In this document: positions 37,768-38,554 of the stretch, one piece after another
How positions within the stretch are numbered: the first letter of the stretch is position 1
Layout of the letters: each line of letters opens with the position of its first letter
Source of the DNA: Escherichia phage EcWhh-1
Sequence record: MH791409.1
DNA: 64,000 nt
Reading direction: 5' to 3' (one strand)
The notes under the pieces: generated by a model
Databases searched by the model: none
What the model saw: the letters and a program-made list of their open reading frames with translations, nothing else
What the model was told of the DNA's origin: nothing
Position numbers and translations under genes: made by a program

Positions 37768-38040
37768 TTATTTTAAATAAATTGCATACTTTTTATAACC
37801 AGCCGTCTCGTGGCGCAACCCTTTTTCATTAGCAAAACGTTCAATATTGTTAATTTGATTCTGGTCAAGTTCTGAAGTATCAAATACAAAAAAGTTTCGC
37901 TTATTGCCTAAAGTTACATGATTAGTCAAATCAATGTTATAGAGATGATTTATATCATCAATCATAGTCTTAACAGATTTGTTAATTTTTACTTCCTCAT
38001 TAAGAATAGATTCAGCGATAAATTCTTGATAAGTTTTCAT
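37768..38040 (-). CDS. Internal-protein-like capsid-targeted protein (CTS MKTYQEFIAE), 90 aa
   Basis: CTS leader identical to T4 IP leader MKTYQEFIAE. Confidence 0.6.
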   Translation of the reverse strand: MKTYQEFIAESILNEEVKINKSVKTMIDDINHLYNIDLTNHVTLGNKRNFFVFDTSELDQNQINNIERFANEKGLRHETAGYKKYAIYLK

Positions 38041-38041
38041 T

Positions 38042-38266
38042 TTATTCTGCGCCAGCGGCTTTCAAAAGTTTTTTAAGATTGGCTGTACCTTGAGCAGAAA
38101 ACGTGACCTTGCCATCTTTTTCACCGATACTCCCGGTCAATTTAGCGAGCTTATCACTAGGGACTTTTTTAAAATCAGCCAATGTACCGTCAAAGGTTTT
38201 TGTAACAACCGGCAGTTGGTCTTCGTGTTTTTTAGCTTCTGTAATAAATTCTTGATAAGTTTTCAT
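38042..38266 (-). CDS. Internal-protein-like capsid-targeted protein (CTS MKTYQEFITE), about 74 aa
   Basis: start set at ATG 38266 (MKTYQEF) with SD TGGAAATCAAA. Confidence 0.55.
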   Translation of the reverse strand: MKTYQEFITEAKKHEDQLPVVTKTFDGTLADFKKVPSDKLAKLTGSIGEKDGKVTFSAQGTANLKKLLKAAGAE

Positions 38267-38290
38267 TTTGATTTCCATGTGGTTGGTTTG

Positions 38291-38332
38291 TTTTGATAGG
38301 CCTATAGTATCATGTCTATAGACCTTGTAAAC
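38291..38332 (-). promoter_or_regulatory. PeSL-like early promoter cassette (GTTTAC, 17 bp, TACTAT)
   Basis: minus strand GTTTACAAGGTCTATAGACATGATACTATAGGCCTATCAAAAC. Confidence 0.55.
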
Positions 38333-38344
38333 ACCTTTTTTAAA

Positions 38345-38554
38345 TTATTTTAGCCATGAAGAATTTTCAGAGACCCAGCTATCTATATCTGATTGAGGGC
38401 CGAAGAAGTAGGCAACCCCATTAGATAACTCTCCTGAAAGCCAATTTATACCTTTCAGGCTTTCTTTAAATTCTTCAGGAGTACAAGAAACCTCTATTGC
38501 CACCGAAGAGGCGGATTCCATTGCTTCTGTTAAGAATTCGCTGTAGGTTTTCAT
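38345..38554 (-). CDS. Internal-protein-like capsid-targeted protein ([13 protein letters not shown]), 69 aa
   Basis: CTS-like leader; acidic. Confidence 0.55.

Follow-up and report, generated by a model that had tools for sequence, protein, structure and literature searches.

Three probable injected internal proteins in the hypervariable ip locus of a JS98-type Escherichia phage

A 64,000-nucleotide (nt) stretch of Escherichia phage EcWhh-1 (sequence record MH791409.1; 'the window' in what follows) carries, on its minus strand, three small adjacent genes that begin with the capsid targeting sequence (CTS) of phage T4 internal proteins. In order of transcription these are open reading frame (ORF)-A (38345..38554; 69 residues), an Ip8-like gene (38042..38266; 74 residues) and Ip9 (37768..38040; 90 residues). 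We consider it probable that they make up the hypervariable internal protein (ip) locus of a JS98-type phage, in the slot occupied by ipI in T4, and that their products (Ip6-like ORF-A, Ip8 and Ip9) are packaged, injected and most likely active as narrow-specificity inhibitors of host defences. In the mechanism we propose, the leader would bind the gp22 scaffolding core during prohead formation, and the gp21 prohead protease would cut it after Glu10. The mature proteins, of 59, 64 and 80 residues, respectively, would remain in the head and be ejected with the DNA, and so would act before the expression of any phage gene. By analogy with Ip1, Ip2 and Ip3 of T4, and with Bas37_0260, a protein of a Tequatrovirus, all three would most likely be narrow-specificity inhibitors of defences against the modified DNA of this phage. 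We infer the packaging, the cleavage after Glu10, the ejection and the targets from these better-known proteins.

A preliminary description of this region proposed the three ORFs with MKTYQEF-type leaders, and their coordinates, strand and translations all bear this out. MKTY(Q/S)EF opens each protein, with Tyr4 and Phe7 always present, and it runs into the (I/L)-x-E prohead-protease site that was also foreseen: residues 8–10 are I-A-E in Ip9 (MKTYQEFIAE/SILNEEV...), I-T-E in the Ip8-like protein (MKTYQEFITE/AKKHEDQ...) and L-T-E in ORF-A (where AMESASS... follows directly), and the next residues are S, A and A. Ile or Leu8, and Glu10 (Glu, not Asp), are thus common to all three. Such starts are not random. 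A six-frame translation of the window contains the motif MK[TS][YF]x[ED]F[ILV]xE six times, always at the start of a minus-strand ORF, where residue frequencies predict 4e-5 occurrences and 200 shuffles gave none. Within each family there is little or no variation at M1, K2, F7, I/L8 and E10; positions 5 and 9 are variable, and residue 4 is aromatic (Tyr or Phe), the lone exception being a His in one Ip9. Targeting of T4 IPIII depends on residues 4 and 7, and its processing on residues 8 and 10 (PMC9026906). The first 10 residues of IPIII suffice for targeting to the prohead core, foreign proteins included, and gp21 cleaves after the Glu of L/I-x-E (PMC9026906, PMC3012670). The T4 internal proteins co-purify with the gp22 scaffold; a head contains ∼300 copies of them, which are expelled together with the DNA (PMC9026906, PMC3012670). 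The leader was originally given as MKTYQEFIAEA for all three T4 proteins. This is right for IPII and IPIII, and for these only; IPI starts MKTFKEFTSTTTPVSTITE/A, a 19-residue propeptide unlike the 10-residue leader of the other two, which agrees with the 76-residue IPI* described in PMC3012670.

The machinery that this leader would address is at hand. Enterobacteria phage vB_EcoM_IME281, the 99.8%-identical phage introduced below, encodes, according to its annotation, the gp21 protease and the gp22 scaffold at 69.2–71.4 kb, and gp67/68 and Inh as well, all just outside the window. Also beyond the window, at 64672–67236 of the same record, two adjacent gp24 head-vertex genes are annotated.

The leader might instead be no more than a scar of recombination, or a 5' translation-initiation region conserved among shuffled modules, at the head of ordinary early cytoplasmic proteins that are not packaged. 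Its coding DNA is a repeat of 37 nt, spanning ∼AAAATGAAAAC... through codon 10, with one copy at 38007..38043 (minus strand) and two others at 38233–38269 (89% identical) and 38521–38557 (68%). Moreover, all three genes lack a late promoter, and what precedes them is either an early promoter or a gene of the early/middle class. We nevertheless regard this explanation as improbable. The near-invariant positions listed above are those mapped functionally; the same leader is kept by 18 unrelated payload families; the 10 residues alone package foreign proteins in T4; and IPI* is packaged although T4 ipI, too, stands behind this early type of cassette. As for the repeat, ip modules may recombine through it.

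Behind the leaders, the bodies of the proteins—the payloads—are unrelated to one another, as first described: with leaders removed they share no BLASTP similarity, even at E ≤ 10, and the same search detects none to T4 IPI*, IPII or IPIII. Searches of Pfam, NCBIfam and PADLOC with the three payloads gave nothing above threshold, sequence profiles of the PDB gave nothing below E 0.2, and no payload resembles any solved inhibitor or IPI*. The profile and structure checks that had been suggested gave models of ORF-A and Ip9 and pointed to a link between ORF-A and Ip6; no Pfam family or solved structure was reached by sequence. All three genes are under purifying selection, with ratios of non-synonymous to synonymous substitution (dN/dS) of 0.02–0.20 against their orthologues in VR5, IME08, WG01 and JS98.

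The 1.9 kb surrounding the locus is 99.8% identical to IME281 (Straboviridae, Tevenvirinae, Dhakavirus; JS98-type), and 91–97% identical to UP19, IME08, IME341 and WG01. On the minus strand throughout, the order of transcription is gp2, gp3, gp1, 57A, 57B, ORF-A, Ip8-like, Ip9, trna.4, trna.3 and trna.2. The three ip genes occupy the slot of T4 ipI, as the preliminary description recognized, bounded by 57B and trna.4; in T4 the slot reads 57B, a 73-nt spacer, ipI, a 76-nt spacer and trna.4. The same description put the block just upstream of 57B/57A, but the direction in which it is transcribed places it downstream of 57B, which is itself directly preceded by 57A (39236–39006, minus strand). 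The left border, 57B (38551..39006, minus strand), is conserved and is annotated as gp57B in IME281, VR5 and JS98. It is the anti-CBASS nuclease Acb1 (CBASS, cyclic oligonucleotide-based antiphage signalling system), matching Pfam PF23474 at E 1.5e-58 and belonging to PHROG 755; the ip slot therefore belongs to a small counter-defence cluster. RefSeq labels this gene 'RNA ligase', whereas the Pfam match indicates Acb1. The right border is the trna.4 homologue (37514..37699, minus strand; PHROG 1692), a small membrane protein gene that is likewise conserved and is annotated in IME281, VR5, JS98 and T4. RefSeq already names two of the three genes between these borders as internal virion or head proteins.

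Two promoter cassettes lie in this region. Cassette 1 (38287..38347, minus strand) is in the 78-nt spacer upstream of the Ip8-like gene, and cassette 2 (37719..37779, minus strand) is downstream of Ip9 and before trna.4; both were delineated by consensus scan, repeat family and RNA folding. The predicted promoter of cassette 1 is TTTACA-16-TACTAT (38331–38304), with a 10-bp stem-loop (38325–38298; z = −3.46) overlapping the −10 box. That of cassette 2 is TTTACA-17-TACTAT (37764–37736), beginning 4 nt past the stop of Ip9 and facing trna.4, with a stem-loop at 37756–37731 (z = −3.82). TG precedes the −10 box in both. Over 61 nt the two spacers form a direct repeat with 74% identity, and they are homologous to both spacers that flank T4 ipI, the stems of which have z-scores of −3.44 and −2.50. 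Each cassette comprises an A-rich tract, GTTTACA, a spacer, TGATACTAT, and an inverted repeat over the spacer and −10 region. The promoter consensus of the early promoter stem-loop (PeSL) elements of T4 and PST is TTTACW-N17-TAYWAT (PMC4122927), and a stem-loop between or over the promoter boxes defines a PeSL subclass in RB49 and phi1 (PMC2839356). On the minus strand of the window, there are 14 strict cassettes (GTTTAC[AT]-N14-17-TA[CT][AT]AT), and on the plus strand there are none. The name 'PeSL-like', used from the outset, is therefore fair, in view of the consensus match, the stem-loop and the repeated copies on one strand. A scan of both cassettes for intrinsic terminators found none, and any attenuator activity of their predicted stems would be putative.

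The assignment of cassettes to genes did change. Each gene had been placed behind its own cassette, and two of the three were said to have a promoter directly upstream; only the Ip8-like gene does, because the second cassette follows Ip9 and faces trna.4, and Ip9 and ORF-A are coupled to the genes before them. The ATG of ORF-A overlaps the TGA stop of 57B (ATGA), and Ip9 starts 1 nt past the stop of Ip8 (GAA TAA A ATG), a gap that implies that Ip9 is co-transcribed, and translationally coupled, with Ip8. Read from the DNA, the arrangement is one promoter for three genes, plus two putative translational couplings. ORF-A would be read from the acb1 transcript through stop/start coupling, Ip8 and Ip9 would form a two-gene unit behind a single sigma70-type early promoter/stem-loop cassette, and the second copy of the cassette, after Ip9, would drive trna.4. 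No MotA-type middle promoter was found upstream of the block.

ORF-A is the least familiar of the three, and the one most open to the objection that it is a chance ORF. It is labelled 'hypothetical' in the IME281 RefSeq record and is missing from the annotations of JS98, JS10, IME08 and UP19, and it has no Pfam, NCBIfam or PADLOC match. That any of these ORFs, ORF-A above all, is fortuitous we regard as extremely improbable. ORF-A has a good Shine–Dalgarno sequence (GAGGA, 6 nt upstream), a dN/dS of 0.08–0.14, and 34 invariant columns across homologues of 64–99% identity. AlphaFold2 gives it a confident model, with a predicted local distance difference test (pLDDT) score of 80, in which a leader helix precedes a beta-alpha-beta-beta-alpha fold. 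It corresponds to PHROG 23867, a family of unknown function, and its relatives occur in 28 phage records (Dhakavirus, EcS1, Erwinia phage Gravdalen and Citrobacter Moonvirus), all 'hypothetical' or unannotated, and always after 57B. They form five 90%-identity clusters in a set of 5.8 billion proteins, and an exhaustive profile search of 1.84 billion representatives added four small, CTS-bearing phage relatives; three long repetitive proteins from the same search were judged to be spurious matches. The JS98 orthologue (2501–2710 of the retrieved stretch) starts with a GTG that overlaps the 57B stop.

The mature part of ORF-A, 59 residues with an isoelectric point (pI) of 4.1, appears to be distantly related to Ip6. 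Among viral models compared by Foldseek, using full-length models that include the leader helix, the 'Ip6 putative internal head protein' of VR7 (template modelling score 0.70, E 3e-3) came right behind the ORF-A orthologue of Merlin. With leaders trimmed, hhalign connects ORF-A to a 78-residue intermediate family at 95.6% probability, and the intermediates to Ip6 at 90.9%; ORF-A aligns with Ip6 directly at 73.8%, and five unrelated Ip payloads, used as controls, at 0.0–0.4%. At the C terminus, ORF-A, the intermediates and Ip6 have G-P-x-x-x-I-[DEN]-x-W in common, a motif with no variation at G, P, I or W. Identity between ORF-A and Ip6 is ∼25% over ∼40 columns. With moderate confidence, on these profiles and models, we assign ORF-A to an extended Ip6 family, as a divergent, shortened and acidic member.

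This relationship matters because Bas37_0260, which has a CTS and lies in the ipI slot of a Tequatrovirus, has been reported to encode an inhibitor of McrBC (bioRxiv 10.1101/2025.11.20.689424). Bas37_0260 (phage Bas37/KarlGJung, MZ501089; 354–587, minus strand, of the stretch retrieved) is a 77-residue protein of the Ip6 family: its payload is ∼73% identical to that of VR7 Ip6, is identical to the sequence at a further locus (L046), and matches the Ip6-type sequences of the survey described below. It was reported to lack homology to known internal proteins; the Ip6 family, to which it belongs, was named long ago in T6 and VR7. Of the three proteins in the window, ORF-A is the best candidate for an inhibitor of the McrBC type. 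That it acts specifically on such an enzyme is a tentative proposal, rather doubtful even if the protein is packaged.

The Ip8-like gene belongs to PHROG 8765, 'internal virion protein' (E 3.8e-27). Its orthologue in VR5 is annotated as 'similar to Ip8 of RB15' and its relative in Merlin as 'RB15 Ip8-like'; the name rests on these depositor annotations and on PHROG 8765. The payload is present in 107 phage records, the mature part (64 residues) is lysine-rich and basic, with a pI of 9.5, and dN/dS is 0.03–0.20. An in-frame ATG at 38278 (MEIKMKTY...) was considered as an alternative start and rejected, since VR5, JS98 and T4 do not conserve it and MKTY opens every homologue. Residues 46–48 are I-G-E, and all aligned homologues have I/V-x-E there. 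Ip9, too, has an extra L/I-x-E motif inside its payload, L-N-E at residues 13–15 in this variant. These internal motifs could be second cleavage sites for gp21.

Ip9 is 79% identical over 100% coverage to RB15 Ip9 (UniRef Q38376) and 80–96% identical to proteins called internal head protein in many phages, and it matches PHROG 7673 (E 2e-56). Its mature part has 80 residues and a pI of 6.8; its dN/dS is 0.02–0.08, and its AlphaFold2 model has a pLDDT of 80. The payload also occurs without a leader, in siphoviruses: JSSK01_64 of a Kagunavirus (2007–2225 of the retrieved stretch) is 53% identical to it over the whole domain, and CDS0075 of the Seuratvirus KS_A3 (1992–2216) is 46% identical. About ten close copies of JSSK01_64 are found in phages of 42–45 kb. 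The KS_A3 copy has been auto-annotated as 'internal head protein', despite the absence of a leader from the protein and of a T4 prohead core from the phage. These relatives suggest that Ip9 is a general phage accessory module, which T4-like phages have tagged for injection.

What fills the slot differs from phage to phage. In T4 it holds ipI; in VR5, ip8 and ip9; in Merlin, ORF-A and ip8; in the window and IME08, ORF-A, ip8 and ip9; and in WG01, these three plus ip7. JS98 has ORF-A and an unrelated Ip of 97 residues, CF1 has an Ip of 106 residues, ORF-A and an ip7-like gene, all joined via ATGA overlaps, and VR7 has five genes, including ip9 and ip6. Polymorphism of the ip locus among T-even phages was reportedly the subject of work by Repoila and co-workers in 1994, cited in PMC3012670 and PMC12373910. 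In our survey of 36 IMG/VR loci with a 57B relative, we counted at least 64 CTS ORFs within 3.5 kb downstream, in at least 18 payload families, and at least 16 of the 36 loci with a CTS ORF that begins at the stop codon of 57B, with at least seven different families among those ORFs; all of these counts are lower bounds because the CTS pattern misses variant leaders.

ORF-A itself illustrates gain and loss at this junction. In an alignment of the window, VR5, JS98 and T4, it corresponds to an indel, a 206-nt block (38354..38559, minus strand) that is present in the window, JS98, IME08 and WG01, and absent from T4 and VR5. The edges of the block coincide with a 7-nt direct repeat, YTAAAAT, at 38553–38559 and 38347–38353, and the 57B ends of T4 and VR5 (…TTAAAATAATTT and …CTAAAATAATTT, respectively) equal the window 57B end joined to the sequence after ORF-A. 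There seem to be two routes of exchange: recombination between promoter/stem-loop cassettes, as has been proposed for PeSLs, and, as we read these sequences, joining at the CTS/stop-codon junction. These ideas can be combined into a speculative scheme, in which we would place rather little confidence as a whole. ORF-A would be an injected McrBC-type inhibitor, an offshoot of Ip6 fitted to unglucosylated DNA derived from hydroxymethylcytosine (hmC). The acb1 stop would be a recurrent docking point, at which CTS modules become chained head-to-tail via ATGA/TAAAATG junctions, independently of promoters and beside PeSL exchange. And the CTS would be a portable tag, with Ip9 a converted accessory protein from siphoviruses.

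The case for counter-defence rests on the precedents and on the DNA of phages of this type. IPI* inhibits the GmrSD type IV enzyme of E. coli CT596 (PMC3012670). Ip1, Ip2 and Ip3 of T4 each block a distinct GmrSD, Ip2 and Ip3 without cross-protection (Silas et al. 2025, PMC12373910). JS98-type phages make hmC and lack glucosyltransferases (PMC2993671), and Dhakaviruses carry gene clusters for the arabinosylation of cytosine (PMC13326640); together, these properties make it plausible that the phage is threatened by enzymes directed at modified DNA. If the three proteins are packaged, we would put the chance that at least one of them inhibits a type IV restriction enzyme at about even.

Several observations weigh against inhibition of defences by injected proteins, or against parts of it. 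When ip4–10 were tested on a panel of GmrSD enzymes, no reproducible inhibition was seen, and a lead for ip8 failed to repeat (Silas et al., PMC12373910). For these proteins of JS98-type phages, a search of the literature found neither virion proteomics nor N-terminal data. No exact late promoter (TATAAATA) is present from 37.7 to 41.9 kb, only one-mismatch sites, and the nearest exact one on this strand is at 41966–41973; that the proteins are available when proheads assemble is thus an assumption, and one that is also made for T4 ipI, the spacer of which likewise lacks a late promoter. Mature ORF-A is acidic, whereas IPII and IPIII are basic, and the transfer of McrBC function to ORF-A is weak, given ∼25% identity and the narrow specificity of internal proteins. 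Finally, siphoviruses outside the hmC phages carry the Ip9 payload without a leader, which speaks against a target of Ip9 that is specific to hmC.

Some of the same observations would suit injected effectors that strike other defences or host-takeover targets rather than type IV enzymes, perhaps in connection with the adjacent anti-CBASS gene. T4 Alt, for example, is a packaged ADP-ribosyltransferase. ORF-A is fused to the stop codon of acb1, the Ip9 payload is common to Kagunavirus and Seuratvirus phages without hmC DNA, the GmrSD tests of ip4–10 were negative, and the payloads are unlike IPI* or any solved inhibitor. Such targets are conceivable, though on balance we doubt them, because every internal protein with a known target inhibits a type IV enzyme (GmrSD variants for Ip1–3 and McrBC for Bas37_0260), ORF-A is a remote relative of Bas37_0260, and payloads of 59–80 residues are too small for enzymes.

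A further alternative is that the proteins are packaged and serve inside the head, in neutralizing the charge of the DNA or assembling the prohead core, with no part in counter-defence. The T4 internal proteins are abundant (∼300 copies), basic and DNA-binding; IPIII affects burst size, and IPIII mutants build heads more slowly (PMC9026906). The lysine-rich Ip8-like protein, with its high pI, would fit such a role, and so would the failure of ip4–10 to inhibit GmrSD reproducibly. ORF-A, being acidic, and Ip9, being close to neutral, would not. The free gain and loss of slot contents among close relatives is a misfit with structural need, the predicted payloads of ORF-A and Ip9 are compact folded domains with conserved surface motifs, the Ip9 payload is a free-standing early gene in siphoviruses, and all three T4 internal proteins now have defence targets. 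We consider a role in the head unlikely, and return to the injection of narrow-specificity inhibitors as the reading that best accommodates the locus.

Much of this picture is not new. CTS-bearing internal proteins, the hypervariable ipI locus and PeSL cassettes have all been described, and the idea of diversified injected effectors, offered in the preliminary description, is established in the literature (PMC3012670, PMC12373910). The new elements are modest: ORF-A can be recognized as probably an internal protein, remotely related to Ip6, and an McrBC lead follows from this; Ip9 has leaderless homologues in siphoviruses; and CTS modules have repeatedly been spliced onto the stop codon of acb1, which points to a second route of exchange beside the PeSL cassettes. 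Internal proteins enter the cell with the DNA before phage genes are expressed, and so constitute the phage's first counter-defence. To our knowledge, only four have known targets: Ip1, Ip2 and Ip3 of T4, and Bas37_0260. ORF-A, unannotated in JS98-type phages that are candidates for therapy, is probably an injected protein related to an McrBC inhibitor. The leaderless relatives of Ip9 make an hmC-specific target unlikely, and open Ip9 to study in a simpler phage. The public annotation can also be corrected, for 57B ('RNA ligase') and for ORF-A and two other CTS ORFs ('hypothetical').

These two CTS ORFs, and one more, lie elsewhere on the minus strand of the window. The first (33436–34053; 205 residues, rich in Lys, Ala and Pro) has a late promoter, TATAAATA, at 34082–34089, and the second (25020–25418; 132 residues) directly follows the lysozyme gene; both are 'hypothetical' in RefSeq. 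The third (24204–24503; 99 residues) is 47% identical to WG01 Ip7, and occupies the position of T4 ipII, after denV. The strict cassettes start at 38332, 37765, 33376, 33046, 29345, 28171, 25019, 22522, 18603, 13581, 10993, 8430, 5865 and 5442, all on the minus strand. Of these, 28171–28143 is nearly identical to the cassette before ip8, and 25019–24991 starts directly after the stop of the 132-residue CTS ORF.

Among the closest known systems are the internal proteins of T4. Residues 1–10 of the three proteins are identical, or nearly so, to those of IPII and IPIII, with an I/L-x-E site for gp21, and the payloads are likewise small, non-essential and mutually unrelated. The order 57B, ip, trna.4 is the same, and it is flanked by the same two promoter/stem-loop cassettes. 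In contrast, the payloads have no detectable similarity to IPI*, IPII or IPIII, the slot holds three genes rather than one, and IPI differs in having a 19-residue propeptide. The cassettes share with PeSLs an intergenic location, a consensus promoter, an A-rich upstream tract, a stem-loop, and repeats that flank a variable gene module (PMC2839356, PMC4122927). Their stems have no T-run, however, and are hence not canonical intrinsic terminators, and the gain or loss of ORF-A uses no cassette at all, but the 206-nt indel at the YTAAAAT repeat.

Individual genes have their own counterparts. Ip8 and Ip9 have counterparts in RB15, K3 and RB32: the Ip9 of the window is a full-length orthologue of that of RB15, and the gene at 38042–38266 falls in the family annotated as RB15 Ip8-like; ip8 and ip9 are adjacent and ordered as they are in VR5, QL01 and others, the difference being that the window copies are in a Dhakavirus and not a Tequatrovirus. 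With Ip6 and Bas37_0260, ORF-A shares the CTS, small size, the 57B–trna.4 slot, the C-terminal motif and a similar predicted fold. It differs in being a 69-residue, acidic protein without the N-terminal strand region of Ip6 (VKVEFIYTGKKDKMGEM), and in its place at the 57B stop, whereas Ip6 is next to trna.4. The leaderless genes of Kagunavirus and Seuratvirus, lastly, match Ip9 over the full length of the payload and conserve its KRN-F-D and GYKK motifs. They begin at the payload, with neither CTS nor linker (∼18 residues fewer), and they are found among the small early or accessory genes of siphoviruses without a T4 prohead core.

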